A stretch of 64,000 nt of DNA. Origin: Candidatus Daviesbacteria bacterium (GTDB taxonomy: Bacteria > Patescibacteriota > Microgenomatia > Daviesbacterales > UBA10151). Shown in pieces: positions 39,821 through 55,405 of this stretch; position 1 is the first letter of the stretch, and the number at the start of each line of letters is the position of its first letter. Position numbers and translations under genes: made by a program. A model generated the notes under the pieces. The model was not told the origin of the DNA. It did no database searches and saw nothing but the letters and a program-made list of their open reading frames with translations. Where the stretch lies: contig CP066688.1 of the NCBI GenBank assembly GCA_016432425.1, positions 446,211 to 510,210 of the forward strand, read 5' to 3'.

Positions 39821-39927
39821 TTGACAAAGTTTTTGTCAATTCCAATAAAATGGATAACTTCTTTAGGATTTGAGAGTTTGCTCTTCGACGAAGTCGAAGC
39901 AAAATCGAAAAAATTCGAAGAATTTTT

Positions 39928-39968
<41 letters not shown>

Positions 39969-40815
39969 TTTAAATATGCAAGTCAAAGGGATCGCAAGAT
40001 AACTGGCGGACGGGTGAGTAATGTATAGGAATCTACCTTGAAGTGGGACATAGCTTCTCGAAAGAGGAGGTAATTTCCCATGTGAACGCAAGTTCAAAGT
40101 CGTAAGACGCTTTAAGATGAGCCTATATTCTATCAGCTTGTTGGTGGGGTAATGGCCTACCAAGGCGACGACGGATAGCTGGTCTGAGAGGATGGTCAGC
40201 CACAATGGCACTGAGATACGGGCCATACACCTACGGGTGGCGCAGTTGGGAATTGTTGACAATGGGCGAAAGCCTGATCACGCGACGCCGCGTGGAGGAT
40301 TGAAGGCCTTCGGGTTGTAAACTCCTTTTATGTGGGAAGATTATGACGGTACCACACGAATAAGCACCTGCTAACTACGTGCCAGAAGCCTCGGTAATAC
40401 GTAGGGTGCAAGCGTTATCCGGATTCATTGGGCGTAAAGAGTTGCGTAGGCGGCTCGGCGCATTCTGCTTGAAAGCCTCTGGCTCAACCAGAGATTTGGG
40501 CAGAAGATGGCCGAACTAGATGGTTTGGGAGGGTGCTGGAACCTGTAGTGTAGCAGTGAAATGCGTTGATATTACAGGGAACACCAAAGGCGTAGGCAGG
40601 CACCTAACAAACCCATGACGCTGAGGCACGACAGCTAGGGGAGCGAAGCAGATTAGAGACCTGCGTAGTCCTAGCCGTAAACGATGTCCGCTAGTTACCC
40701 CGCCTTTGGCGGGGCGACGACGCTAACGGAAAAACCTCACCAGGGTTTGACATGCAGATGCTAAGCCTATGAAAGTAGGCCTCCTTCGAGGGTTCTGCAC
40801 AGATGCTGCATGGCT

Positions 40816-41633
40816 AATCCCGATTGAATCGGGATGATGGCCGCTCCTTAAGTAATTAAGGAGAAAAATAACCAACCCAAAACGGTGAAGCCCTACTTTT
40901 GGCGTAAGCCAACAAGCAAGATTTCTTACTTGATTTTCGTATTACTTTCGGGTAATGTGAAATTAAGGGGTAATACCGTGGGAAGCTGGTTAGTGTGAGG
41001 TTAGATGTTTGAGGTCGGAAGATGGATAAAGAGATTGGAAGTTTGAAATTGGTAGGATACAATCAAAGTAATGTGATCCAAAGTTTTAAAGATCTAAAAG
41101 TATATCAGGAATCTTATGAATTGGCTTTAATAATTAACAGAGCAATTTTGAGATTGCCTAATAGCGAGAGATTTGATTTGGTAGATCAGATGCGAAGAGC
41201 GTCAAAATCTATTCCAGCAAATATTGCTGAAGGATATGCTAAAAGATTGTCTGAGAAAGAATTTAAAAGATATCTTTTATCAGCAATTGGATCGTGTAAT
41301 GAAATGGTTGTACATATCAGTTTTGCAAAAGATTTAGGTTTTTGGAAATCTGAATTTTGTGAGGATTTACTTAAACGATATGATATCGTAGGTAAACAAC
41401 TTACAAGATTGTTGCAAAATTGGAAAGCCTATCCAACTTCTAAAGTCTAATTTCACAATCTACCTTCTAATTTCTAACATCTAACTTCTATCTAACATAG
41501 CCCCGTAGAGACTGATTCCGCCAGCTGGCGGATGAGAATAGCCAAATGAGGTTATTCAGACGGTTGGCTCCCTACCTTAAATAAAGGGGGAGAAGGTATA
41601 GTCCATGCTCCTAGTAATAGGCAGATTTACATG
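40816..41633 (+). mobile_element. Group-I-like intron in the 16S rRNA between GCATGGCT and GTCGTCAGCTCG
   Basis: Exon sequence GCTGCATGGCT|GTCGTCAGCTCG is restored exactly when 40816-41633 is removed. The 5' exon ends in U and the insert ends in G. The 3' part shares blocks with 23S intron 3 (ccccgtagagact, gtatagtccatgc, ttacatg). Confidence 0.65.
41022..41450 (+). CDS. Four-helix-bundle protein of the 23S-rRNA-intervening-sequence family
   Basis: DLKVYQESYELALIINRAI...FDLVDQMRRASKSIPANIAEGYAKRLSEKEFKRYLLSAIGSCNEMVVHISFAKDLGF matches the IVS four-helix-bundle family pattern; encoded inside the 16S intron. Confidence 0.75.
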   Translation: MDKEIGSLKLVGYNQSNVIQSFKDLKVYQESYELALIINRAILRLPNSERFDLVDQMRRASKSIPANIAEGYAKRLSEKEFKRYLLSAIGSCNEMVVHISFAKDLGFWKSEFCEDLLKRYDIVGKQLTRLLQNWKAYPTSKV

Positions 41634-42238
41634 GTCGTCAGCTCGAGGCGTGAGCTGTACCCTTAAGTGGGACATCGAGCGCAACCCGCACCGTATGTTA
41701 AATAATCCATACGGAACAGCCCCAGTTTTTACTGGGAAGGAAGGTGCGGATGACGTCAAGTCAGCACGGTTCTTACACCCTGGGCTACACACACCCTACA
41801 ATGGCGAAGAACAACGAGTTGCAAGCTGGTAACAGCAAGCTAATCTCTGAAATTTCGCCTCAGTTCAGATCGAGGGCTGCAATCCGCCCTCGTGAAGTCG
41901 GAATTGCTAGTAATCGCGGATCAGCAGGCCGCGGTGAATACGTTCTCGGGTCTTGTACACACCGCCCGTCAAGCGAGCAAAGTTGGGGGCGCCCGAATGC
42001 CTATGTATGTAGGCAGAAGGTGAAACCAGCGATGAGCGCTAAGTCGTAACAAGGTATCCCTAGCCGAAGCTGGGGATGGATCACCTCCTTTCTGGAGATT
42101 AGGTCAAACTAATGATTACTTAAATAATGTATCGTTATGGTATGTCATAGTTCGCAGTAGTTTGATCCATTGATCACGTATGTTCACGCATATGATGATA
42201 GAGAGTTTGAATATTCTCTCTTTAAAGAAAAATATTCC

Positions 42239-42262
42239 CCACCACTTTTTTGGTATTAAAGT
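42239..42262 (+). promoter_or_regulatory. 16S rRNA 3' processing-stem strand
   Basis: Complement of 39797-39820 (see above). Confidence 0.7.
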
Positions 42263-42374
42263 TTTTTTGGCCATTTTTGCGCCAACCGCAGATTTTTATG
42301 AAGTCTAGGGAGCAAAAAGGCCAGTTCGACCTTATACTGTTTATTTGCAAAGCAAATGACAGTTCAAGCTATGC

Positions 42375-42740
42375 TTATACTCGTAAATTTCTAATTTCAG
42401 TAGAAGAGGAGAGCTGGTAAATTTTCTCTCCCAGTTTGTAATCAAAAACAAATCTCGGTAGAATTTTTACTTTTATTCCAGCTTTTAAAAAATCTTTTCG
42501 GTGATTTTTATCCATTGGATCAGCTCGATACCAAGTATTAGTATTAGAATCTTTTAATTTCAACTGTTTTTTAAAATATTTTACCCAATTTTCTGGGGAA
42601 TTTTGATCTATTAATGGAAGTATTTGATATGGTTTAGTAGTGGTTTTTAATTCCTCCTGAAGCTTCTGGACTCTTACTTGATAAGTAGACAGACTTGGAT
42701 CCTGAGTAGAACCAATACCAATAATAATTCCTATTGTCAT
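42375..42740 (-). CDS. Hypothetical protein (possible C-terminal extension or partner of the LAGLIDADG endonuclease)
   Basis: 121-aa ORF whose start overlaps the stop of the upstream LAGLIDADG gene (ATGA); no motif. Confidence 0.3.
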   Translation of the reverse strand: MTIGIIIGIGSTQDPSLSTYQVRVQKLQEELKTTTKPYQILPLIDQNSPENWVKYFKKQLKLKDSNTNTWYRADPMDKNHRKDFLKAGIKVKILPRFVFDYKLGEKIYQLSSSTEIRNLRV

Positions 42741-43399
42741 TCGAGAAATTTAGCCTTTCTTTCAAGATATAATTTGCAATTAGGGTAGTATATAAAATTC
42801 AAAAGTTTCTTAGTATCTTTCTTTGCATATTCTAACTTCCATTGGTTGCCATTACCATAAGAACATATTTTCCTTGGGAAAAGTTCTAACTCTTTGGTTA
42901 ATAAATCTCTCAATGAATTCAAAAACAATGGACTTCCGGAGGTAAAATTACATCTAAGATCAGTTTGTTTGCGATGATCTTTAGTTCTTAAATAAGTTGT
43001 AAAAAATACACTTCCATCGCCATCAAAATAGCCCCTAATAAAATCAGCTAGAAATTCTTTTTGGATTTTAGGTAACCTAATTACTAGACTTTTTTTTCGG
43101 AGGCCACCTAATAAAAGTAAATCTTTGTATAAAATTTTAGAATGTACGATTAGGGTAGAAGATTTTTCAAGCTTTCCTTTTCTGCGATAACGGAAAATAG
43201 GGGAATTAGAATTCAGAACCCCTTTTACTTGCTGTAGGATTGATTCATCTAGCGAAGAGAAAGTAATTCTATAAGATCGCTCGTGTCTCATATATCCATC
43301 AGCTAACCAGTATCCAAAAACATAGGCCATATCTGGGGACCATTTTGAGAAGAAATTTTCGTTCAAGGTGTATTTTCTAGAGTGGTATTTAAGAAGCAT
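42737..43399 (-). CDS. Free-standing double-motif LAGLIDADG homing endonuclease
   Basis: Two LAGLIDADG motifs, YVFGYWLADGY and FIRGYFDGDGSV, in a 220-aa ORF between the 16S and tRNA-Cys. Confidence 0.8.
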   Translation of the reverse strand: MLLKYHSRKYTLNENFFSKWSPDMAYVFGYWLADGYMRHERSYRITFSSLDESILQQVKGVLNSNSPIFRYRRKGKLEKSSTLIVHSKILYKDLLLLGGLRKKSLVIRLPKIQKEFLADFIRGYFDGDGSVFFTTYLRTKDHRKQTDLRCNFTSGSPLFLNSLRDLLTKELELFPRKICSYGNGNQWKLEYAKKDTKKLLNFIYYPNCKLYLERKAKFLE

Positions 43400-43444
43400 T
43401 ACTTTATATTAGCCAAATAAAATACGAAAAGTCAATATTTTGGG

Positions 43445-43516
43445 AGGTGCAGGCGGGAATCGAACCCGCGCATCGAGGTTTTGCAGACCCCAGCGTTTCC
43501 ACTTCGCCACTGCACC
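43445..43516 (-). tRNA. tRNA-Cys (GCA)
   Basis: Reverse complement folds as a cloverleaf: acceptor GGTGCAG/CTGCACC, anticodon loop CTGCAAA (anticodon GCA), T-arm GCGGG-TTCGATT-CCCGC. Confidence 0.8.
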
Positions 43517-43560
43517 AAGTATTGGCTTATTTTAACACGAACTTCTGGTAGAATACATTT

Positions 43561-43980
43561 ATGGCAAAAGTAATTCGAGTAGTCGGAGCAGTAATTTTTA
43601 ATCCCAAAAGTGATAGTTATTTTGTGGGCCAGCGGGGGAAAAATAAAAAAGTTCCTTTAAAATGGGAATTTATTGGGGGAAAAGTAGAAACAGGAGAAGA
43701 TTTGTTGCGAGCTATTCAGAGAGAATTTAAAGAAGAAGTGGGGATAAATATTAAGGCACTAAGATCTATTAATAAAAGTCAGTTTAATTATGGAGGGGAA
43801 GTGGGTTTGATTGAGGTTAATTTTATTGAATGCGAACTTTTTAAAGATGAGCCGAATTTTGACCCGGAGGTTTATGAAATCTGCAAATGGGTTAAAAGGG
43901 GAGAATTAGCTAATCTGGATTGGGTAGAAGCAGATAGAGAGTTTGCTTTAAATTTAGCCAAAAATGAGGTAAAATATTGA
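43561..43980 (+). CDS. Nudix hydrolase (MutT-like)
   Basis: Nudix box GGKVETGEDLLRAIQREFKEEVGI. Confidence 0.8.
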   Translation: MAKVIRVVGAVIFNPKSDSYFVGQRGKNKKVPLKWEFIGGKVETGEDLLRAIQREFKEEVGINIKALRSINKSQFNYGGEVGLIEVNFIECELFKDEPNFDPEVYEICKWVKRGELANLDWVEADREFALNLAKNEVKY

Positions 43981-43987
43981 AGTTTTA

Positions 43988-44059
43988 GGGCGCGTAGCTC
44001 AGTGGTAGAGCGCTTATCTGATAAGTAAGAGGTCCTTGGTTCAATCCCAAGCGCGCCCA
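43988..44059 (+). tRNA. tRNA-Ile (GAT)
   Basis: GGGCGCG acceptor, GCTCAGTGGTAGAGC D-arm, anticodon loop CTGATAA (anticodon GAT), T-arm CTTGG-TTCAATC-CCAAG. Confidence 0.85.
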
Positions 44060-44085
44060 CTTAAGTTCATGTTATGATTTAATTA

Positions 44086-45093
44086 ATGCAAGTTGTTTCT
44101 TCAGACCTTGTTTTAGGTAAGAAAGTTTTGCTCCGTTTAGACTTAGATGTTCCCCTTCGACAAGTCGGAGATGCCCGACAGGGTACTCAGGGCCATGGCC
44201 AATTTGAGGTAATTGATGACTTTAGATTAAAAGCCGGGCTGGAAACAGTGTATCTCTGTTTAGAACATGCCAAACAGGTAATTATCATGGGACATATTGG
44301 CAGGCCAATGGGAAGGGAGGTCCCAGAGCTTTCCGTAAAACCTATTTATGGTTGGTTTTTAAGTCAGGGTTTAGCTCCCCACCTCGAAGGTGGAAGGCTA
44401 AAGTTGTTGGAGAATTTAAGGTTTGAGGAGGGGGAAGAGAAAGCGGATTTAGGATATGCCAAGGAATTAGCTAAATATGGGGATTTTTTTGTTAATGAAG
44501 CTTTTGCCTCTTTCCATCCAGCTGCCTCTACCACAGTTTTGCCTACATTACTGCCTCACGCGGCAGGGTTACATTTTGCCAAAGAAGTAGAAAAATTAAC
44601 CAAAATCAGAATTAATCCACATCACCCCTTGGTAGTAATTGTGGGAGGGGCCAAAAAGGAGGATAAAATCCCCTTTATCCAGGAAATTTCTAAGATAGCA
44701 GATCAGGTTTTAGTAGGAGGGAAAATGGTTTCGACTGCTTCTAACTTCACCGCCAACGTACTAGTAGCTACTTTAAATGAAGATGGTTTAGATATTACTG
44801 AGGAAACAATAAATTCCTGGAAGGAAATAATTAAAGCGGCCGGGATGATAGTTTGGAACGGACCCATGGGGAGGGTGGAAGAAGGTAAAATAGCCGGCAC
44901 TAAGGCAGTGGCAGAAGCGATCAGTGAGTCTTGGGCGGAAGTGATAATTGGTGGAGGAGATACGGTGGGTTTTTTAGCAAAAGAGGGACTGCTGGAAAAA
45001 TTCGAACACCAAGCTTTCATCTCTACCGGTGGTGGGGCTATGTTAGAATTTTTAAGTAAAGGGACTTTGCCCACCATAGAGGCCCTGAAATGA
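44086..45093 (+). CDS. pgk: Phosphoglycerate kinase (compact form)
   Basis: N-terminal KKVLLRLDLDVPL and HIGRP substrate-binding motifs and C-terminal GGGDT nucleotide-domain motif; 335 aa. Confidence 0.75.
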   Translation: MQVVSSDLVLGKKVLLRLDLDVPLRQVGDARQGTQGHGQFEVIDDFRLKAGLETVYLCLEHAKQVIIMGHIGRPMGREVPELSVKPIYGWFLSQGLAPHLEGGRLKLLENLRFEEGEEKADLGYAKELAKYGDFFVNEAFASFHPAASTTVLPTLLPHAAGLHFAKEVEKLTKIRINPHHPLVVIVGGAKKEDKIPFIQEISKIADQVLVGGKMVSTASNFTANVLVATLNEDGLDITEETINSWKEIIKAAGMIVWNGPMGRVEEGKIAGTKAVAEAISESWAEVIIGGGDTVGFLAKEGLLEKFEHQAFISTGGGAMLEFLSKGTLPTIEALK

Positions 45094-45665
45094 ATTTAAT
45101 AATTACTAATCTTTATTTGTTTGCCATGGCCACAGTGCTGGCCCTTTTGGAAATCCAAATTGAAGGAGCTCATGGTTGGGCGAAAAATCTACCAACCTGG
45201 AGGCCGCATCCCGGCCATCCTTTAGCTAAAATTTATGCAAAGTTTATGTCCGGGAAAGAGCTAACTGGCTATCACAGCGCCATGTTTATCTTTGTGGTTT
45301 TAATCTTCCATCTGCCTTATGTATTTGGTCTAACCTTTACCCTGGAACACTGGTTACAAACACTCTCTTTATTTTTTATCTTTATAGCCTTATGGGATTT
45401 TTTGTGGTTTGTCTTTAACCCCTACCATCCTTTGAAAAATTTTTCTAAAAATAACCCTAATCACAAAGCTTTCTTTTTAGGGTTGCCTCTAGATTACTAC
45501 TGGGCGATTGCTTTTTCTTTCTCACTGGCAGCAGTTGCACAGTTTATTTTTGGATTTAGTGGTTTTATCTCCTGGTGGTTGGGGAATTTTGGGTTATTTT
45601 TAACAGAAACTGTGGGGGCTATTTTATTTTCTTATCTGGTTTTGGATATAGATAATTGGTTCTAA
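45090..45665 (+). CDS. Integral membrane hypothetical protein
   Basis: 191 aa with ~5 hydrophobic helices; overlaps the pgk stop. Confidence 0.45.
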   Translation: MNLIITNLYLFAMATVLALLEIQIEGAHGWAKNLPTWRPHPGHPLAKIYAKFMSGKELTGYHSAMFIFVVLIFHLPYVFGLTFTLEHWLQTLSLFFIFIALWDFLWFVFNPYHPLKNFSKNNPNHKAFFLGLPLDYYWAIAFSFSLAAVAQFIFGFSGFISWWLGNFGLFLTETVGAILFSYLVLDIDNWF

Positions 45666-45686
45666 ATTTGCTACTCTAAAGGGGCC

Positions 45687-46727
45687 ATGAAAATTGCCAT
45701 TAATGGCTTTGGCCGGATTGGCCGAACTGCCTTTAAGATTATTATTGATAAATATTTGGATCAAATTGAAGTGGTAGCTGTCAACGACCTCACTGATAGT
45801 AAAACCCTGGCCCATTTACTCAAATATGATTCTAACTACGGGATTTGGAACCATGAGGTTTCTGGTGATGGTGATACTTCAAGTCCGCTCAGTACAGGAA
45901 ATATCATTGTGGATGGGAAAAGTTTTGCTGTTTTAAAAGAATTAGAACCGGAGAAACTCCCCTGGAAAGATTTAGAGGTGGACATAGTAATTGAGTCAAC
46001 CGGCAAATTTACCGATCAGGCCGGGGCCCAAAAACACTTAAACGCTGGAGCCAAAAAAGTAATTATTTCTGCCCCCAGCAAAGAGGGGGATTCGGGTGAT
46101 AATACCGAGGTGGCCACCTATATCTTGGGAGTTAATGCCGCTAAATACCAAAATGAGGCCATAATTTCCAATTCTTCCTGTACTACCAACTGCATTGCCC
46201 CCATTGCCGCGGTGATGAACCTCAAATTTGGTATAGTCAAGGCCATGATGACCACCATTCATGGCTACACTGCTGATCAAAACCTGCAGGATGGACCCCA
46301 CCGGGATTTAAGAAGAGCCAGAGCAGCCTCAGTTAATATTATCCCCACCACTACCGGAGCAGCTATTTCCACTACTAAAACTATTCCTGAGCTGGAGGGT
46401 AAATTTGATGGAGTGGCTTTGAGAGTACCGGTCCCAGTGGGGTCAATTTCTGATTTTACCTTTCTCCTGGCGAAAAAGGTGACCAAAGAAGAAGTCAATA
46501 ATGCTTTTAAGGAAATTTCCCAAAACCCTTCTTTTACCAAAATCTTAGCCGTGACAGAGGAGCCAATTGTCTCTTCCGATATTGTGGGAAGATCTGAGTC
46601 AGCCATAGTAGATTTATCTCTAACTCAGGTAGTAGATGGGGATTTGGTCAAGGTTTTTGCCTGGTATGATAACGAATTTGGGTATTCCAACAGGTTAGTA
46701 GAACAGATAATAAATGTAGGTAAATAA
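45687..46727 (+). CDS. gap: Glyceraldehyde-3-phosphate dehydrogenase
   Basis: MKIAINGFGRIGR NAD-binding start and catalytic SCTTNC motif. Confidence 0.9.
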   Translation: MKIAINGFGRIGRTAFKIIIDKYLDQIEVVAVNDLTDSKTLAHLLKYDSNYGIWNHEVSGDGDTSSPLSTGNIIVDGKSFAVLKELEPEKLPWKDLEVDIVIESTGKFTDQAGAQKHLNAGAKKVIISAPSKEGDSGDNTEVATYILGVNAAKYQNEAIISNSSCTTNCIAPIAAVMNLKFGIVKAMMTTIHGYTADQNLQDGPHRDLRRARAASVNIIPTTTGAAISTTKTIPELEGKFDGVALRVPVPVGSISDFTFLLAKKVTKEEVNNAFKEISQNPSFTKILAVTEEPIVSSDIVGRSESAIVDLSLTQVVDGDLVKVFAWYDNEFGYSNRLVEQIINVGK

Positions 46728-46866
46728 TACTAAAACCTGTATAACATTTCGTTATACGATCGTACACGAATTGTGACGGATTTCAGATGTCAATCTAATC
46801 CACCCCCAGGTGTTCTGATTTTATTTAACTATTGACATTGGTTGGGTTTTTATATAAAAAGTAGCC

Positions 46867-48060
46867 ATGGCAAAAACATACCACCTACAGAAACAAAAAC
46901 ACTATGCCCGAAACTACCAGGACCTGCGCAAAGGTTGGGACGATAATTTGGAGCCTTTAAAACCCCTGGATGTTAACAAAATCAAAAACTTTTCTGATAT
47001 GGCAGAGGCTATGTCCCAAACTGCTTTTGGAGGCAGAATTGTGGGGGAGGCCGTGGATACGCTGGTGGCCATGAATAAAGATAAAGCAGCATTCACGGTC
47101 ATGACAGTGGCCGGGGCCATGACTGTAGCCAAGATGGGCCTGTTGATTTGCGAGATGATCGATCGGGGTATGGTTCAGGCTTTGGTAGTGACAGGGGCTT
47201 TAATGGCCCATGGGTTGGCTGAGGCAGCCGGTATGACCCATTTTAAAGCTCCCCAGGACATGTCTGATGATGAAATGTATCTGGCCGGTTATGACCGGGT
47301 TTATGACACAGTAGAGTTGGAGAAAAACCTGGATGATACGGAGGAGATTTTATTTGAAATTTTAGAAGGAATTCCGGAAGAGAAAGTTTTATCCAGCAGG
47401 TTAATTACTGAAGAAATTGGTAAATATTTAGTTAAGAATTCAGTTCACCGGGGTGTTTTAAAAAGCGCTTATCTAAAAGGGGTACCGGTTTATGTCCCGG
47501 CCTTTACTGATTCTGAGTTAGGATTGGATTTAGGCATGTACAATCGGGCCCGAGTAAAAAAAGGTTTACCACCACGCCGCTATGATCCGTTAATTGACTT
47601 AGAACACTACACCAAACTGATTTGGCGCCAAAAGAAGCTGGGGATTTTTACTATTGGGGGAGGAGTACCCAGAAACTTCGCCCAACAAGTTGGCCCTTTT
47701 ACAGATTTAGTACATCAGCGAGGTTTGGACAGTCCAGAGGATACTGGCAAAAGGACTAATGGTAAAAAAACTTACCAACCGGTGATGTTTACTTATGGAC
47801 TAAGGATCTGTCCGGAGCCGGTTTACTGGGGTGGATTATCCGGCTGCACCTATTCAGAAGGGGTATCTTGGGGAAAATTTGTACCCGAAAAAATGGGAGG
47901 CAGATTTGCGGAAGTTCCCTCGGATGCTACTATTATCTGGCCTTTTATTTTAAAAGCTGCGCTGGAGAGATTAAAGGTTAAAGATATGAGAAAAAAGGTT
48001 AAGTCTGGGAAAAAAGTTATTAAAGAAATAGATGATCAAATAATGGTTAATTATAAATAA
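46867..48060 (+). CDS. Deoxyhypusine synthase-like protein (homospermidine/deoxyhypusine synthase family)
   Basis: IGGGVPRNFAQQ resembles the DHS GGGVPKNF motif; 397 aa; adjacent to agmatinase. Confidence 0.65.
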   Translation: MAKTYHLQKQKHYARNYQDLRKGWDDNLEPLKPLDVNKIKNFSDMAEAMSQTAFGGRIVGEAVDTLVAMNKDKAAFTVMTVAGAMTVAKMGLLICEMIDRGMVQALVVTGALMAHGLAEAAGMTHFKAPQDMSDDEMYLAGYDRVYDTVELEKNLDDTEEILFEILEGIPEEKVLSSRLITEEIGKYLVKNSVHRGVLKSAYLKGVPVYVPAFTDSELGLDLGMYNRARVKKGLPPRRYDPLIDLEHYTKLIWRQKKLGIFTIGGGVPRNFAQQVGPFTDLVHQRGLDSPEDTGKRTNGKKTYQPVMFTYGLRICPEPVYWGGLSGCTYSEGVSWGKFVPEKMGGRFAEVPSDATIIWPFILKAALERLKVKDMRKKVKSGKKVIKEIDDQIMVNYK

Positions 48061-48189
48061 TCCGGCTCGTCTAGCCGCAAAGTACAACTGCACCGTTTAC
48101 TTTGGCTGGTTTAGACTTCGTCGTCTCTGGAATTATTTCTGTAATAATGCGTAACCCAAAATTTTATGCCTGCTTTAGCAGGCTCAAGA

Positions 48190-49077
48190 TTATCTTATCT
48201 CTTTAATTAATGAATAACCAATAATCTTATATGCTAATTTGGCGGCCAGAAAGTTTGGGGCAGAAATTCCCGGCAAAGGAGACAGCTCTACAATATCCAG
48301 TCCCACCAAATTCCTTCTTTTGGCTACAGCTTTAATTAAGTCTAACACTTGATAAAACGATAACCCACCCGGTTCCGGAGTGCCGGTGGCAGACATGATG
48401 GCCGGATCCAGCCCATCCAGGTCAAAGCTAAGGTAGACATTTTGCTTTAAAGTTTTAAGGATTTTTTTCATGGGCAGATCCGGTGCATAGAAGATATATT
48501 TTTCTCTCTTGCTTTTCTTGATAAAACCCATTTCTTCCTCACTGACACTTCTAATTCCTACCTGGGTAACCGGTAATTTTAGGTCTCTGACCACCCGGCC
48601 CATTACACAGCCATGATGGAATCTGGTCCCTTCATACTCATCCCGCAAGTCAGTATGGGCATCAATTTGCAAAACCGATAAATTTTTAAATTTTTTGGCT
48701 GCCGCCCTAATGGGGCCCAAGGCAATAGAGTGTTCTCCTCCTAAGGTAACGGGGAATTTACCATCTGCAAACAGTTGAGAAACAACTTGGTCAATTTGTT
48801 CCACCACCTCTTCCGGGGAATTTTTAGAAGGAGCCAGTGGATCTAGGGTATAAATTCCTAGTTTAGAGGAAATGTCTAATTTAAGTTCCAGGTCAAAAAG
48901 TTCTAAATGGCGGGAGGCTTCAATGAGTGCCTGGGGGCCAAATTTAGTACCCGGGTTCCAATAAGTGGTAGAGGAGTAAGGGACAGGGAATATTATGGCC
49001 TTTGCTTTTTCATAAGTTTGATCTGTCAGTCCGGTAAAATTAAAAGGTTCACCAGCGTCAAATTTGGGTTGTTTCAT
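48190..49077 (-). CDS. Agmatinase/arginase family ureohydrolase
   Basis: Arginase-family metal-binding motifs GGEHSIALG, DAHTDL and SFDLDGLDP. Confidence 0.8.
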   Translation of the reverse strand: MKQPKFDAGEPFNFTGLTDQTYEKAKAIIFPVPYSSTTYWNPGTKFGPQALIEASRHLELFDLELKLDISSKLGIYTLDPLAPSKNSPEEVVEQIDQVVSQLFADGKFPVTLGGEHSIALGPIRAAAKKFKNLSVLQIDAHTDLRDEYEGTRFHHGCVMGRVVRDLKLPVTQVGIRSVSEEEMGFIKKSKREKYIFYAPDLPMKKILKTLKQNVYLSFDLDGLDPAIMSATGTPEPGGLSFYQVLDLIKAVAKRRNLVGLDIVELSPLPGISAPNFLAAKLAYKIIGYSLIKEIR

Positions 49078-49284
49078 GAAGCTATTATATTAGATATATT
49101 GAGGTTGACAATAGGCTAATCATTTGTTAAACTCTGTCCAGTGTTTAATCAGATGAGAAGCAACGCACCATTAACTTAACTCTTTGCGCGCTGAGGGTCT
49201 TCCTGGTGCGGAAGATAAAAAGCCTTAGCGTTGTATCCCTCAATTAAATTTTTAAAATAATATTGGATTTCTGGAAAGTGAATC

Positions 49285-49356
49285 GGGCCCGTAGTTCACT
49301 GGTAGAACGTGTCATTTGCAATGACAATGTAGGAGGTTCGATTCCTCTCGGGTCCA
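49285..49356 (+). tRNA. tRNA-Ala (TGC)
   Basis: Acceptor GGGCCCG/CGGGTCC with the G3:U70 alanine identity pair; anticodon loop TTTGCAA (anticodon TGC); T-loop TTCGATT. Confidence 0.85.
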
Positions 49357-49682
49357 CATTAGGTAGGGAATAGTTAATTAGCGTATAGCGTATAGTTAGA
49401 TTTCTTTAACTAAACGCTAAACGCTAGCGAACTAAACGCTAGTTAATTTGCACTTTGAAATGTGAATACGTATATTTTGGACTTTTTAGGCCTACCGCAG
49501 ATTTGTTTATGTAGTTTGTCAACGAAAAAGTCCATTTCGGCCGCTTGGGTCGTAGTGGACAATTTGGCAGAAAACGTAAATTAACAGATTTAGGTACGTG
49601 CCAAATTAGTCCAAAGAATTGAGAAGGCCAAATTAAACCCCGATTTAATCGGGGTTCATGAGCCAAAAATACTCAATACTTC

Positions 49683-49702
49683 GATTTCACTCAGTATTGT
49701 AC
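49683..49702 (+). promoter_or_regulatory. 23S rRNA 5' processing-stem strand
   Basis: cgatttcactcagtattg is the reverse complement of caatactgagtgaaatcg at ~55133-55150, 3' of the 23S. Confidence 0.65.
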
Positions 49703-50205
49703 TGAGCGTAAATTGAATGTACAACATTAATGCATACGGTGGATGCCTTGGTCGAAAGTACCGATGAAGGACGCACTTGACCGCGATAGTCTGCGAGGAG
49801 CTGCCAAGAAGCTTTGATCCGCAGGTTTCCGAATGGGATAACCCCTCCTTTTTTGGGGGATCCTGTCATGAATACATAGTGGCAGGAAGGGCACGCACTG
49901 AACTGAAACATCTAAGTAAGTGCAGGAAAAGAAATCAACAGAGATTCCCCAAGTAGCGGCGAGCGAAACGGGAACAGCCTAAAGTTATTTGCGCTTCGCG
50001 CAAGTGAAGACAAATAACGGGTAGTGGGGTCTGTAATATGGTATCAGATGAGGATAGCTGAAATGTCTGGAAAGATATGCCAAAGAACATGATAGCTGTG
50101 TAAGCAAAATTCAAATCTGGCCTAACGGATACCCGAGTAACTCAGGACACGTGTAATCCTGGGCGAATCTGTGGCGACCATGCCATAAGGCTAAATATAC
50201 TTTCG

Positions 50206-50245
<40 letters not shown>

Positions 50246-50841
50246 AAGGGCGAGATGCCCTGTGAAATAGTACCTGAAACCGTATGCTGACAAGCAGTGG
50301 GAGCTGGAGGCTAGATGTTGGACGTTAGAAGCTGGAAAATATCTAGCATCTAATTTCTAACTTCTAGCTTCTAGTAACCGCGTGCCTATTGAAGAATGAA
50401 CCGGTGAGTTATCGTTATTTTCAAGTCTAAGCAAGTTTACTTGTGCAGGCGCAGTGAAAGCGAGGGTTAATAGCCCGCATGCCCTGAGTTTATCGAAGGG
50501 TAAGAAGATGACGTTAGACCCGAAACCGAGTGAGCTAACCATGTCCAGGGTGAACCCGCCTTAATCGGCGTGGGGAGGCCCGAACCCGTATCTGGATCAA
50601 AAGGTTGGGATGAGGTGTGGTTAGGGGTGATATGCCTAACGAACTCGGAGATATAGGGGTAGAGCACTGGATGGTCTTTCCGCCGCAAGGCGGGAGATCA
50701 ACCAAACTCCGAATACTACTGCGATTATCTTGAGGAGTCAGTCCGATCCGGCTAAGCGGAGCGGGCCTAAGGGAAACATCCCAGATCAATAGCTAAGGTC
50801 CCTAAAACAGGTTAAGTGTTAAAGGTAGTCTTGATCCTTAT

Positions 50842-50898
<57 letters not shown>

Positions 50899-51776
50899 TG
50901 GTCTACTACGGATTGGGGCGCCGACAATGTATCGGGGCTCAAACCTGTTACCGAAGCTTTGGGGGTGCACCATATGGTGCACCCGGTAGAGGAGCGTCCG
51001 CCAAACAGTGAAGGTGAGTTGTAAGACTTGCTGGAGATTGGCGGAGTGAGAATGCCGGTATGAGTAGCGTATTGATGTGAAAAACATCATCGCCGTAAGC
51101 CCAAGGTTTTCCACGCAACGTTAATCGGCGTGGAGTTAGTCGATCCTAAGGTCAGGCCAAATGGCGTAGCCGATGGACAACAGGTTAAAATTCCTGTACT
51201 TTTGTTTTCTGTCAAAGACTTCAAGGGTTGACGGAGTGGGAAAATTTTCTACCCTGAGTGAGGAGCGTCAGCTCCGAATCGAAGGGTCTAAGCAACAAGT
51301 TAGTGGAGGCAGGCAAATCTACCTCCATGTGTCATCAGTTTCTCTTGAGCAATCGAGCGAGCTGGTGGCTTTAAAAAATACGAGTTGTTATGGCGTAAGA
51401 GAAGATTTTTCTGTTTCCAAGAAAAGACTCGTGAAGGAGAAAATGAAATTCGTACCAAAACCGACACAGGTGGGTAGATTGAGTATATTAAGGCGATCGG
51501 GAGAACTATCCTTAAGGAACTCGGCAAAATAGCTGGACGTAACTTATTGGAGATGTCCTGTCTTTCATCGCAAGATGGAGGACCTCAGTTAATGACGCTA
51601 AGCGACTGTTTATCAAAAACACAGCTCCCTGCTAAATCGAAAGATGATGTATAGGGGGTGACACCTGCCCAGTGCCAGTAATTTAACACTTCAGTTGATC
51701 CCTTTCCGCAAGGTCAGGAGGAGGTTGGGGTCTAAGATCTGGTGAACGGCAGCAGTAACTATAACTGTTCTATGGT

Positions 51777-52533
51777 GAGATTCGTTGCCTTAGAAGTAAA
51801 AATCCGTGAAAGCGGATGGTGTGTTTTTGAAATTCTGCTATATGCTGGAAACTCTGTAGTATCCTAAGCTAGTTATTGATTTTTGGTAAAATTTCGGGTA
51901 ATACTGAAATAATGTCTAATTTGATAACTAATAATGTTCTAGGTGCAGACAATCAGCAGGAAAGACTAGTGGAAATTGGTTGGATAGTTGGTTTTGTAGA
52001 TGGAGAAGGTTGCTTTTCAACTGGAATTGTTCAACAAAATGATCGTCCCGGAAGAAAAGGATACAAACTTCGTTATCAAGTATTCTATGAATTTGCAGTA
52101 ACTCAAGGAGCAAAAAGTATTGATTCTCTTGAGAAAATACACAAATACTTTGGAGTAGGTAGCGTAGTAATTAATAGACGATATGATAATCATAAAGAGC
52201 ATTTATATCGTTATATTGTTAGAAAGAAGGAAGATTTGTTGAATGTAATAATTCCTTTCTTCCAAAAGTATCATTTGCAATCTTCTAAGCAAAAAGATTT
52301 CGAAAAGTTTGTCCAAATTGTTAGTCTAGTTGATCAAAAAAGGCATCTAGAAGCGGATGGATTAATCGAAATATTAAAAATTGCTGAAACCATGAACCGA
52401 CAAAAATCCCGCCAAGATCTAATTAGAATCCTCAGAGACTAATACGCAGAAGTCCAATGAAAATTGGACAAGATAGAGTCCGAACTTTATGGCGACATAA
52501 AGAGTCTAGGTTTATCCTAGGAATAACATTTTT
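51777..52533 (+). mobile_element. 23S group I intron 1 (insertion near E. coli ~1923, GGT|AGCGAAATTCC)
   Basis: Exon 1 ends ...ataactgttctatggt and exon 2 resumes aagcgaaattccttgtc; the ~757-nt insert contains a LAGLIDADG ORF. Boundary uncertain by 2-3 nt. Confidence 0.6.
51876..52442 (+). CDS. LAGLIDADG homing endonuclease (intron-encoded)
   Basis: IVGFVDGEGCF LAGLIDADG motif; 188 aa inside intron 1. Confidence 0.8.
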   Translation: MIFGKISGNTEIMSNLITNNVLGADNQQERLVEIGWIVGFVDGEGCFSTGIVQQNDRPGRKGYKLRYQVFYEFAVTQGAKSIDSLEKIHKYFGVGSVVINRRYDNHKEHLYRYIVRKKEDLLNVIIPFFQKYHLQSSKQKDFEKFVQIVSLVDQKRHLEADGLIEILKIAETMNRQKSRQDLIRILRD

Positions 52534-52654
52534 AAGCGAAATTCCTTGTCTGGTGAGTTCAGACCCGCACGAAAGGTAGAACGACTTAGCGACTGTCTTG
52601 AGGATAGACCCGGCGAAATTGCAATGGCTGTGAAGATGCGGCCTTCCCATACTT

Positions 52655-52690
<36 letters not shown>

Positions 52691-53042
52691 ACTCTGATTT
52701 AAAAGTTAAATTGTGTAGCGTAGGAGGGATCCTGAGAGCAATCGAAGGAAACAATGAAACACCTCTCTTTTTAAGTTTTAAGTCTCACCATGGGCCCTAG
52801 AAAAACGGGCCATGGGACCAAGTCTGGCGGGCAGTTTTACTGGGGCGGTACCCTCCAAAAAAGTAACGGAGGGGTACAAAGGTACACTTGTCTCGAATGG
52901 AAACCGAGACTGAAGCGTAAAGGTATACAGTGTGCTTGACTGCGAGAGGTACATCTCGAGCAGGGACGAAAGTCGGTCTTAATGATCCTCACGTAGCTTA
53001 TGGGAGCGCGTGGGCTTAACGGATAAAAGCTACCCCGGGGAT

Positions 53043-53924
53043 ACAAATGTGTCCTGTCCCGATATATAATGAAATCGGGACGATAATGTGGCTAATAACG
53101 GTGAAACCTATCAATTGGTGGTTTGGTCTTACCAAATGCATCGAGACAATTAGTAGGCAATACCGTGGGAAGTCGAAGGTATGGACAAGATACAAAAGGC
53201 AATAGTTATTGGAACTATTTTAGGAGACGGTTTTTTGCAAAAAACTGGCAAAAATAATGCTCGTTTAAGGCTAGAACATAGTTTAAAACAGCAGGATTAT
53301 CTTCTCTGGAAGTGTCAAATTTTAAATAATTTCTTTCAGAAAAAGCCAAAGATTTTAACAAGAACCAATCTGAAATTTGGTAAAAGTTACCAATATATCA
53401 GAAACCAATCCTATTCTGGTTTGGAGTTTGGAAAACTACATCAACTTTTTTATGTTGATGGTAAAAGGGTTGTCCCAAATGAGATATCCAAACTTCTCAA
53501 AAATCCAATGAGTTTGGCTGTTTGGTTTATGGATGATGGGTATTACTACTTTAGAGATAAAATAGCTTATATCTATTTACCTGAACTAGACTCGGATTCA
53601 ATAAATAACTTATTAATTGCTTTGCGAATGAATTATGGTTTATCTCCTCAACTAAAAATTAAAAAAAGAGGGGAATATGTTTTAAACTTTAGCGTAAAAG
53701 ATACAGCAAAGTTAATTCAAATAATTAAACCATATATCATAAAATCTATGTCCTACAAATTACCTTTTGACCCCGTATCGACTGAACCTAGTAGCAAAGA
53801 GTAAATATCATTTATTCTTGGGTGAGATGTGAGGTTAAATCTTGCATCATATGCCGCACTCCAGCACCAAATTGGTGTTGGATGAAGATATAGTCAGTAC
53901 TAACAGTGATGTTAGATTTTTATG
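53043..53924 (+). mobile_element. 23S group I intron 2 (insertion in CCCCGGGGAT|AACAGGCT, E. coli ~2449)
   Basis: Removing 53043-53924 restores CCCCGGGGATAACAGGCT exactly. The upstream exon ends in U and the insert ends in G. Confidence 0.7.
53181..53804 (+). CDS. Double-motif LAGLIDADG homing endonuclease (intron-encoded)
   Basis: Motifs IIGTILGDGFLQ and VWFMDDGYYY; 207 aa inside intron 2. Confidence 0.8.
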   Translation: MDKIQKAIVIGTILGDGFLQKTGKNNARLRLEHSLKQQDYLLWKCQILNNFFQKKPKILTRTNLKFGKSYQYIRNQSYSGLEFGKLHQLFYVDGKRVVPNEISKLLKNPMSLAVWFMDDGYYYFRDKIAYIYLPELDSDSINNLLIALRMNYGLSPQLKIKKRGEYVLNFSVKDTAKLIQIIKPYIIKSMSYKLPFDPVSTEPSSKE

Positions 53925-54068
53925 AACAGGCTAGTCTTGCCCTACAGTCCACAAGGACGGCAAGGTTCGGCACCTCGATGTCGGCTCATCGCATCCTCCT
54001 GCTGAAGTAGGTGGGAAGGGTCGGGCTGTTCGCCCGTTAAAGCGGTACGCGAGCTGGGTTCAAACCGT

Positions 54069-54792
54069 TTAGTAGTTGAGAATTTTTCGACTATTGAACA
54101 GTTTGAACCCGAGGTTTAAGACATCAAAATTACGGCGGCGCAGTACAGCAATGTATTGTGTAAAGCTGATTCATATCGGTGAAATCCTGATGTAAGGTTG
54201 CATAGCAACCTGTCATATGTTAGGATAATACCGAGGGAAATTGTCCATGGTTAAATTACTTTCTGAAGTTAAAAAAGCTTACATAGCAGGTTTTTTGGAT
54301 GGAGATGGAAGTATTTATGTTAGAGCAAAACCTAACTCTGATTACAGATTTGGTTTTCAAATTGCTCCCTACATAATTTTATTTCAATCTTCCAAAGAAA
54401 AAGAGAAATTTACAGAGCTTTGTAAGTTAATTGGTTTTGGGTATATGAGAGAAAGAAAAGATGGAGTTTTAGAATATACTATCAATAAGATAGCAGATAT
54501 TCGAGAATTCTTGAAAGCAATATATCCATTTTCTATTTTAAAGAAAAGACAGATAGAATTAATGTTAAAAATTCTGGATGCCAAGGAAAAAATAGAATCA
54601 GAGAGTGATTTTCAAGCTCTTTTAGAATTAGTTGATTCGTATAGAAGCTTAAATTATTCTAAAAAGAGAATTAACCGTGTATTAACCCCGTAGAGACTAC
54701 AAATCAGCCATCCTGAGCGAAGTCGAAGGATGAAAGTATAGTCCATGCCTTTAGAATAAGCAGAGCTTTTCTGCGAATAGAGGAATTACATG
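54069..54792 (+). mobile_element. 23S group I intron 3 (insertion in GGGTTCAAACCGT|CGTAAGACAGG, E. coli ~2593)
   Basis: Exon junction matches the conserved GGGTTTAGAACGTCGTGAGACAG block. The insert ends ttacatg (terminal G) and shares 3' blocks with the 16S intron. Confidence 0.7.
54241..54693 (+). CDS. LAGLIDADG homing endonuclease (intron-encoded)
   Basis: IAGFLDGDGSIYV LAGLIDADG motif; 150 aa inside intron 3. Confidence 0.8.
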   Translation: MSMVKLLSEVKKAYIAGFLDGDGSIYVRAKPNSDYRFGFQIAPYIILFQSSKEKEKFTELCKLIGFGYMRERKDGVLEYTINKIADIREFLKAIYPFSILKKRQIELMLKILDAKEKIESESDFQALLELVDSYRSLNYSKKRINRVLTP

Positions 54793-55261
54793 CGTAAGAC
54801 AGGTTGGTCTCTATCCAGTATGGGCGTTTTGATTCTTGAGGGGAGTTGTCTCTAGTACGAGAGGACCGAGATGAGGAAACCTCTAGTGTGCCTGTTGTAC
54901 CAAAAGTGCAGCGCAGGGTAGCTACGTTTCTAACTGATAAGTGCTGAAAGCATCTAAGCACGAAGCAGGCCCCAAGATAAGGAATCTTTAAGATCCCTGG
55001 AAGACTACCAGGTCCCGCAAGGGAATCCTGAGAGCAATCGAAGGATTGATAGGTTGGCGGTGTAAGTGCTGTAAGGTATTTAGCCTACCAATACTAATGA
55101 TCGTTGTTGATACATTCGACTAATGCTCAGTGTCAATACTGAGTGAAATCGAATGTATTGAGATTTTTTGACTCACAGCCTTCTTTTAAAATACGTATTC
55201 ACATTTCAGGGCGCAAAATTAGTCAAATTTGACTTATCATCCTTATTTGTTTTATACTAAA

Positions 55262-55378
55262 AGCCTCGGTGGTTGGAGCGGTAAGGTTCCACCTGATTCC
55301 ATCCCGAACTCAGTAGTGAAACTTACCAGCGGGGACGATAATGCATCCGCAAGGTTGCGTGAAAATACCTCACTGCCG
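55262..55378 (+). rRNA. 5S ribosomal RNA (3' half divergent)
   Basis: ccacctgattccatcccgaactcagtagtgaaac matches the universally conserved 5S helix II/III-loop C region. I could not pair the termini convincingly, so the ends are approximate. Confidence 0.5.
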
Positions 55379-55405
55379 GATTTTTAGAAAGACAGGTGAA
55401 AATGT

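Follow-up and report, generated by a model that had tools for sequence, protein, structure and literature searches.

A 105-nt gap in the core of a Daviesbacteria 16S rRNA gene is most probably an assembly artefact

Introduction

Can a small ribosomal subunit RNA do without its 900 region? The question is raised by the 16S rRNA gene in a 64,000-nt stretch of Candidatus Daviesbacteria DNA (the whole stretch analysed is referred to here as the window), in which two flanks that are normally separated by this region are directly joined. Helix 27 (h27), the central pseudoknot, G926, the h28 neck and the 966 loop of h31 are indispensable in the 30S subunit, and no 30S subunit is known that does without these elements. 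If the gap were real and the gene functional, this would be the first bacterial SSU rRNA that lacks the neck, the switch helix and P-site elements, or that is put together from separately encoded pieces, an important finding on how ribosomes have evolved in CPR bacteria.

Deviations of CPR rRNAs from the usual pattern are well documented. CPR genomes have basically a single copy of every rRNA gene, insertions of at least 100 nt are present in 42% of CPR 16S genes, and the reductions affect h6, h10, h17 and two regions designated 16Gap4 and 16Gap5, all of which are surface-exposed (Tsurumaki et al. 2022, PMC9297842). Intervening sequences and surface-helix reductions in CPR 16S rRNA are credited in the same paper to Brown et al. 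2015.

Results

A 105-nt core segment is absent from the 16S gene

The 16S gene of the window lacks exactly 105 nt, equivalent to E. coli positions 868-972. When the gene was aligned by E-INS-i with E. coli and 24 full-length relatives, 105 core columns proved to be absent, and alignment to the relatives located the true junction, at which GCTAACG (40722-40728) abuts GAAAAACC (40729-40736). The limits of the deletion were taken from annotated landmarks of E. coli rrs, GCTAACG at 861-867 and GAAGAACC from 973 onwards. When the region alone was searched with the covariance model (CM) RF00177, two pieces were obtained, corresponding to model positions 745-870 and 977-1189 and meeting at 40741/40743; in the left piece, the final ~14 nt result from GGAAAAACCUCACC being forced into alignment. 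From GATTAGAGACC to TGCATGGC the window has a distance of 156 nt, as against 260-302 nt in 33 relatives. About 64 columns that are invariant in the relatives are cleanly absent, which cannot be a chance effect, and the universal motifs AAACTCAAAGGAATTGACGG and GGAGCATGTGGTTTAATTCGA have no match anywhere in the window with up to three mismatches allowed. Features of the locus are listed in Table 1.

Table 1. Features of the 16S rRNA gene and its surroundings, in window coordinates. E. coli numbering is used for rRNA positions; a slash within a sequence marks the junction.
Feature	Position	Strand	Basis or remark
16S rRNA gene	39922..42091	+	RF00177 model 1-1533, 1012 bits; BLAST to relatives
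5' end region, central pseudoknot 5' strand (17-19)	39933..39948	+	Partner 916-918 missing
Universal 341-357 site, CCTACGGGTGGC-GCAG	40230..40245	+	A353 missing between 40241 and 40242
GGGCGTAAAG, includes h19 5' strand (567-570)	40430..40439	+	Partner 880-883 missing
h26 base 5' strand, GTCCGCTA	40686..40693	+	3' partner (872-879) in missing segment
Deletion junction, GCTAACG/GAAAAACC	40722..40736, break 40728/40729	+	CM, relative and E. coli alignments
818-nt intervening sequence	40816..41633	+	E-INS-i: insertion before 1061
Intervening sequence ORF, four-helix-bundle "23S rRNA intervening sequence protein"	41022..41450	+	PF05635, E=2e-29
h30 3' strand, GGGCTACACAC...CCCT	41782..41792	+	Retained; state that pairs with AGCGTGTGG in relatives
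h29 3' strand, GGAATTGCTAG	41900..41910	+	Retained, identical to relatives
h28 3' strand, CTCGGGTCTTGTAC	41945..41958	+	Retained, CGGGTC state
LAGLIDADG ORF 1	42737-43399	-	Antisense, between 16S and tRNA-Cys
LAGLIDADG ORF 2	51876-52442	+	Inside ~758-nt 23S insertion, also in L018
LAGLIDADG ORF 3	53181-53804	+	Between 23S 3' end and 5S

These results agree with the sequence-only reading of this DNA, which had reported that about 100 nt of the conserved 900 region are missing and had given a landmark spacing of ~133 nt against ~245 nt in E. coli. Its coordinates and motifs proved correct, as did its statement that both universal motifs are absent. It had also named the finding that would overturn it, namely helices of the 885-975 region that are present with divergent sequence. 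This possibility was ruled out by the CM and E-INS-i alignments, in both of which the helices are truly gone.

By the numbering of the 16S secondary structure, we take the lost elements to be the 3' strands of the h26 base, of h19 and of the central pseudoknot (916-918), all of h27, the 5' strands of h28, h29 and h30, and h31. Measured against a functional SSU rRNA, model positions ~870-977 are gone, and with them h27, the pseudoknot 3' strand, h31 and the 5' strands of h28-h30. We concur with the earlier view that the 900 region is essentially never missing from functional SSU rRNA.

The remainder of the gene is well preserved

The gene matches RF00177 from end to end; an 818-nt intervening sequence (IVS) inserted in it brings its length to 2170 nt. 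Its sequence is Microgenomates/Daviesbacteria-like, with 84-91% identity to the closest GTDB representatives by BLAST. Helices h6, h10, h17 and h44 are shortened; these are the usual CPR reductions and are common to the relatives, as are the changes in the 515 region, which are compensated. The 530 loop GTGCCAGAAGCCTCGGTAATAC (compensated as in relatives) and the 790 loop (the left-hand spacing landmark above) are present, and so are the decoding centre (1400/1492 region) and the anti-SD sequence, represented by ACACCGCCCGTCA and GGATCACCTCCTTT. Only about one private substitution (position 357) was found at columns that are invariant elsewhere, against 0-20 in the relatives. In addition, a single nucleotide, A353, invariant in the 24 relatives and E. 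coli, has been lost. Decay as an rRNA pseudogene was ruled out by this comparison.

The bases that follow the A353 loss are also unlike those of the relatives, AGTT vs AACT. Behind the loss there may be either a second local error or a private change that is real.

The strands that would pair with the missing segment in h2, h19, h26, h28, h29 and h30 are all intact, and they are in the covarying states of the clade. In the relatives the h26 base forms seven of eight pairs with many compensatory types; in the window its 5' strand has no partner. Two states of h28 are found among relatives, GAGGCG/CGCCTC and GACCCG/CGGGTC, and the CGGGTC of the window covaries with a 5' strand GACCCG. Position 949:1232 of h30 is A-T in some relatives and G-C in others. 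Together the retained strands of the window predict a 5' strand resembling that of loci L051, L028 and L066. A cell that contains the segment would be expected to have such intact partner strands; combined with the lack of decay elsewhere in the gene, they mean that the segment was lost extremely recently or is not missing from the real genome at all.

The gap is confined to one sequence

For comparison, 38 loci were retrieved from GTDB representative genomes using the signature GATTAGAGACCTGCGTAGTCCTAGCCGTAAAC, which lies just to the left of the junction. The genomes are named as Daviesbacteria, Roizmanbacteria, Gottesmanbacteria, Curtissbacteria and Microgenomates. All 24 full-length Microgenomates 16S genes contain the segment, as do further partial ones, and none of the 33 relatives with enough flanking sequence lacks it. 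The closest loci (L049, L051, L040, L058 and L028) are 84-91% identical to the window, and every one of them has it. Loci L021 and L066, reached via contigs that bear the IVS protein, have the same IVS at the same site and an intact 900 region; h33/34 of L066 is almost identical to that of the window.

The junction sequence gave no matches in GTDB representative genomes. In JGI metagenomes it gave a single chance match, inside a protein-coding gene, and none in rRNA. Homologs of the antisense read-through protein of this region come only from relatives with an intact 900 region. The gap is therefore confined to one sequence and is not a trait of the lineage.

In other respects the gene resembles the CPR 16S genes described in PMC9297842, with its long insertion, short surface helices and single locus with dispersed genes. 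The gap itself differs from 16Gap1-5 of CPR in that it is situated in the core of the subunit (E. coli 868-972) and not at the surface, and in that it occurs in one sequence, whereas the known CPR reductions are of surface helices and are common to whole lineages.

Irregularities were seen in two of the related loci as well. L028 (JACOXG010000023.1, Candidatus Daviesbacteria NC_groundwater_147_Ag_S-0.1um_38_19) belongs to a GTDB representative MAG from the same groundwater site. Its 16S gene is without 166 core columns (E. coli 1148-1312), with a clean junction GTTAAATAAT/TCAGCAACCCGACCCC, and the missing piece is absent from the rest of its 8-kb locus. This deletion is equally implausible biologically and could have a different cause from that of the window. 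In L021 (ENA ERZ27284378 k139_435648), positions 1-2232 comprise the 5' part of a 16S gene (to E. coli ~1060), the IVS, the 3' part of a 23S gene and 5S; this contig probably arose as a chimera in assembly, across an IVS common to 16S and 23S genes.

The missing piece is not found elsewhere in the window

The rest of the 64 kb was searched for the missing segment in several ways. Two 20-21-mers from it had no match with up to three mismatches, and neither cmscan over the full window (E<=1) nor blastn-short found it. A profile built from the segments of 24 relatives and E. coli and run with nhmmer --max had its best match in the 64 kb at E=3. No second 16S copy was detected in the 64 kb by cmscan at E<=1.

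The intervening sequence is a separate feature

The IVS follows GCATGGCT, at E. coli 1060/1061, and begins 88 nt downstream from the deletion junction. It is an ordinary CPR feature and is separate from the deletion: the stretch 40816-41633 has the character of a CPR intervening sequence with a PF05635 ORF, and the deletion does not. A link between the gap and the nearby IVS was ruled out, as relatives with an IVS at the same site keep the segment. The real start of the IVS ORF is likely to be GTG at 41073, giving a protein of 125 aa. A search for homologs of this protein yielded 781; identity is 87-91% in the best of them, which mostly have a length of 125 aa. Homologous IVSs with 82-88% nucleotide identity occur in other rRNA genes of Microgenomates.

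Copies of the IVS are present at the same 16S site in L021, L065 and L066 and near 16S position ~1400 in L008 and L023, and in the case of 23S inside the gene in L025 and downstream of its 3' end in L018. Such variety of rRNA sites indicates that the IVS behaves as a mobile rRNA-targeting element. The 23S gene of the window has a ~70-nt insertion at 50308-50379, in which a 33-nt stretch is identical at 28 of 33 positions to the 3' stem of the IVS (41457-41490) and is accompanied by an inverted partner. This insertion has the appearance of a "mini" member of the 16S IVS family without an ORF, or of a footprint left by that family.

Discussion

A working ribosome with a reduced or split 16S rRNA is most probably not what the gap represents. 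With a probability of roughly 0.75, we attribute it to a local assembly or consensus error, and we infer a technical cause and not a real mutation. The anomaly occurs in one assembly only and its surroundings are otherwise normal, as expected for an error of this type. A real deletion fixed in the sole 16S gene would be lethal. The real genome would instead carry an ordinary 900 region like those of L051, L028, L021 and L066, resembling ...GCTAACGCGTTAAGC.GACCGCCTGGGGAGTACG...GACGGGGACCCGCACAAGCAGTGGAGCGTGTGGTTTAATTCGATAC.AA.CGAAAAACC..., and the join would not be supported by reads of the real population, in which the intact path would run GCTAACGCGTTAAG...CGAAAAACCTCACCAGGGTTTGACATGCAGATGC instead of the joined GCTAACGGAAAAACC.

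The origin of the sequence agrees with this explanation. An exact-protein look-up of the flanking genes in Logan contigs found the population of the window in runs SRR121133xx-4xx; in the same type of look-up, the IVS ORF (in its 142- and 125-aa forms) and a spurious 99-aa ORF were not on record. On both sides, independent Logan contigs of this population break off within ~30 nt of the 16S gene, and contigs that stop at the edges of the gene indicate that it is hard to assemble. The runs belong to the agricultural groundwater samples of He et al. 2021, whose published MAGs consist of MEGAHIT contigs scaffolded with IDBA-UD, and the places where the population occurs suggest that the window came through that pipeline. 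"Local assembly errors", in which the consensus is supported by no read, have been described especially with IDBA-UD (Chen et al. 2020, PMC7111523). The gap is like those errors in being an isolated implausible change within a hard-to-assemble conserved or repeated gene on a MAG-type contig; absence of perfect read support is their defining criterion, and the likeness is drawn here from the assembled sequence, in which there are no flanking Ns or long repeats. Comparable anomalies on other MAG contigs of the clade, the internal deletion of L028 and the 16S-IVS-23S join of L021, point the same way. Because the junction flanks contain neither Ns nor a repeat of k-mer length, a standard de Bruijn collapse does not explain the junction. 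A further point against an artefact is that chimerism is not detectable in the flanks, which have their closest relatives in common.

A real but non-functional deletion, produced very recently by illegitimate recombination or slippage and carried by a second, redundant copy or by a minority of dying or defective genomes that assembly happened to follow, is unlikely, and yet several observations fit it. The junction is clean, without Ns, and adjoins the short similar motifs AACG and A(A/G)CG; such motifs resemble those of microhomology-mediated deletions. The gene has a second private oddity in the A353 loss, and an event of very recent date would agree with the lack of other decay. The microhomology, however, does not give the exact junction observed. 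Recombination between AACG repeats would yield GCTAACGAAAAACC, and the sequence shows GCTAACGGAAAAACC; the usable microhomology is 0-1 nt or, if one extra base is allowed, no more than 4 nt. The sequence-only reading had suggested a mechanism based on AACGCG-like repeats, and this is unsupported since the right-hand motif in the clade is ACGAAGC/GAAAAACC or ACAAAAC/GAAAAACC. Template switching on short homology, in vivo or in vitro, stays among the conceivable routes. Also against a real deletion, CPR rRNA genes are basically single-copy (PMC9297842), so that the loss would be lethal; no second copy is present in the 64 kb, and the gap is situated in the only rRNA locus seen, together with tRNA-Ile, tRNA-Ala, 23S and 5S. 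The truncated rRNA copies mentioned under operon macroheterogeneity in PMC5658200 are similar in having an internal 16S deletion, but they come from genomes with several operons, whereas CPR normally have one and the copy in the window is in the canonical locus.

Could the missing 105 nt be encoded elsewhere and assembled in trans, leaving the ribosome complete? All partners of the missing strands are kept in a clade-appropriate form, as trans-complementation requires, and CPR rRNAs already have intervening sequences that are excised, including the 818-nt one located just downstream in this gene. An artefact accounts for the retained partners equally well, though, and the piece is not in the 64 kb. 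No relative has such a split, so it would be brand new, and yet an additional copy of the piece would already have had to exist and be expressed. In the gene, residues 867 and 973 are directly bonded; presumably the former lies on the platform side and the latter in the P-site loop of the head, and the architecture of the 30S subunit suggests that an extra cleavage would be needed. Fragmented rRNA genes are known, e.g. in Chlamydomonas and apicomplexan mitochondria, where related organisms share the same arrangement and the genome holds the pieces at other places. The window resembles such fragmented or scrambled rRNAs of organelles and protists in that the main gene is without a core segment but has the strands that pair with it; it differs in that its piece was not found in the 64 kb and the arrangement is not common to relatives. 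We consider a split 16S extremely improbable, and hardly any credence can be given to a real junction fixed in a single-copy gene whose core segment comes from a separate gene, i.e. to a 16S rRNA made of independently encoded pieces. The earlier suggestion that the segment is provided in trans has no support, with no copy in the 64 kb and a split in no relative. Among the causes which that reading had offered, assembly error or deletion remains the best, and neither the repeat-mediated nor the in trans variant found support.

A chimeric join of the 16S genes of two organisms at the junction is very improbable. Conserved rRNA stretches are classic sites of such joins, and L021 joins 16S and 23S across their common IVS. 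A join at homologous positions would not remove 105 nt, however; the parts to the left and right of the junction are closest by BLAST to the same relatives (L049, L051, L040 and L062, 84-91%), which speaks against a chimera across it, and protein genes on both flanks occur in the same run series.

If the gap is a local assembly or consensus error, as we favour, the case bears on other data. CPR 16S genes on MAG contigs can hold silent internal deletions and should be checked against reads; such deletions would distort 16S phylogeny, primer evaluation and surveys of "reduced ribosomes".

Other features of the rRNA locus

The rRNA locus is dispersed, in the order 16S, tRNA-Cys (on the minus strand), tRNA-Ile, tRNA-Ala, 23S (49722-53093) and 5S (55265-55381). 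BLAST tiling against relatives revealed no stretch of 50 nt or more that is lost from the 23S gene. The RefSeq record L064 (NZ_AP027616.1, E. coli "plasmid pLR-72_4", 2911 bp) contains a 23S gene only, appears rearranged in comparison with a normal 23S and probably entered the reference collection as an artefact of assembly. As L064 is unreliable as a 23S reference, the 23S control rests on the tiling against relatives.

The 7.6 kb between 16S and 23S (42092-49721) contain genes for a NUDIX protein, phosphoglycerate kinase, GAPDH and a deoxyhypusine synthase homolog. The distance from tRNA-Ile to tRNA-Ala is 5.2 kb and that from 23S to 5S is 2.2 kb (53094-55264). The three LAGLIDADG endonuclease ORFs of the window belong to three different Pfam families. 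In the stretch 44086-45665, the ORF for phosphoglycerate kinase has a length of only 335 aa and overlaps by 4 nt with the next ORF, which has 191 aa and no Pfam match; the two may represent a split or fused gene arrangement.
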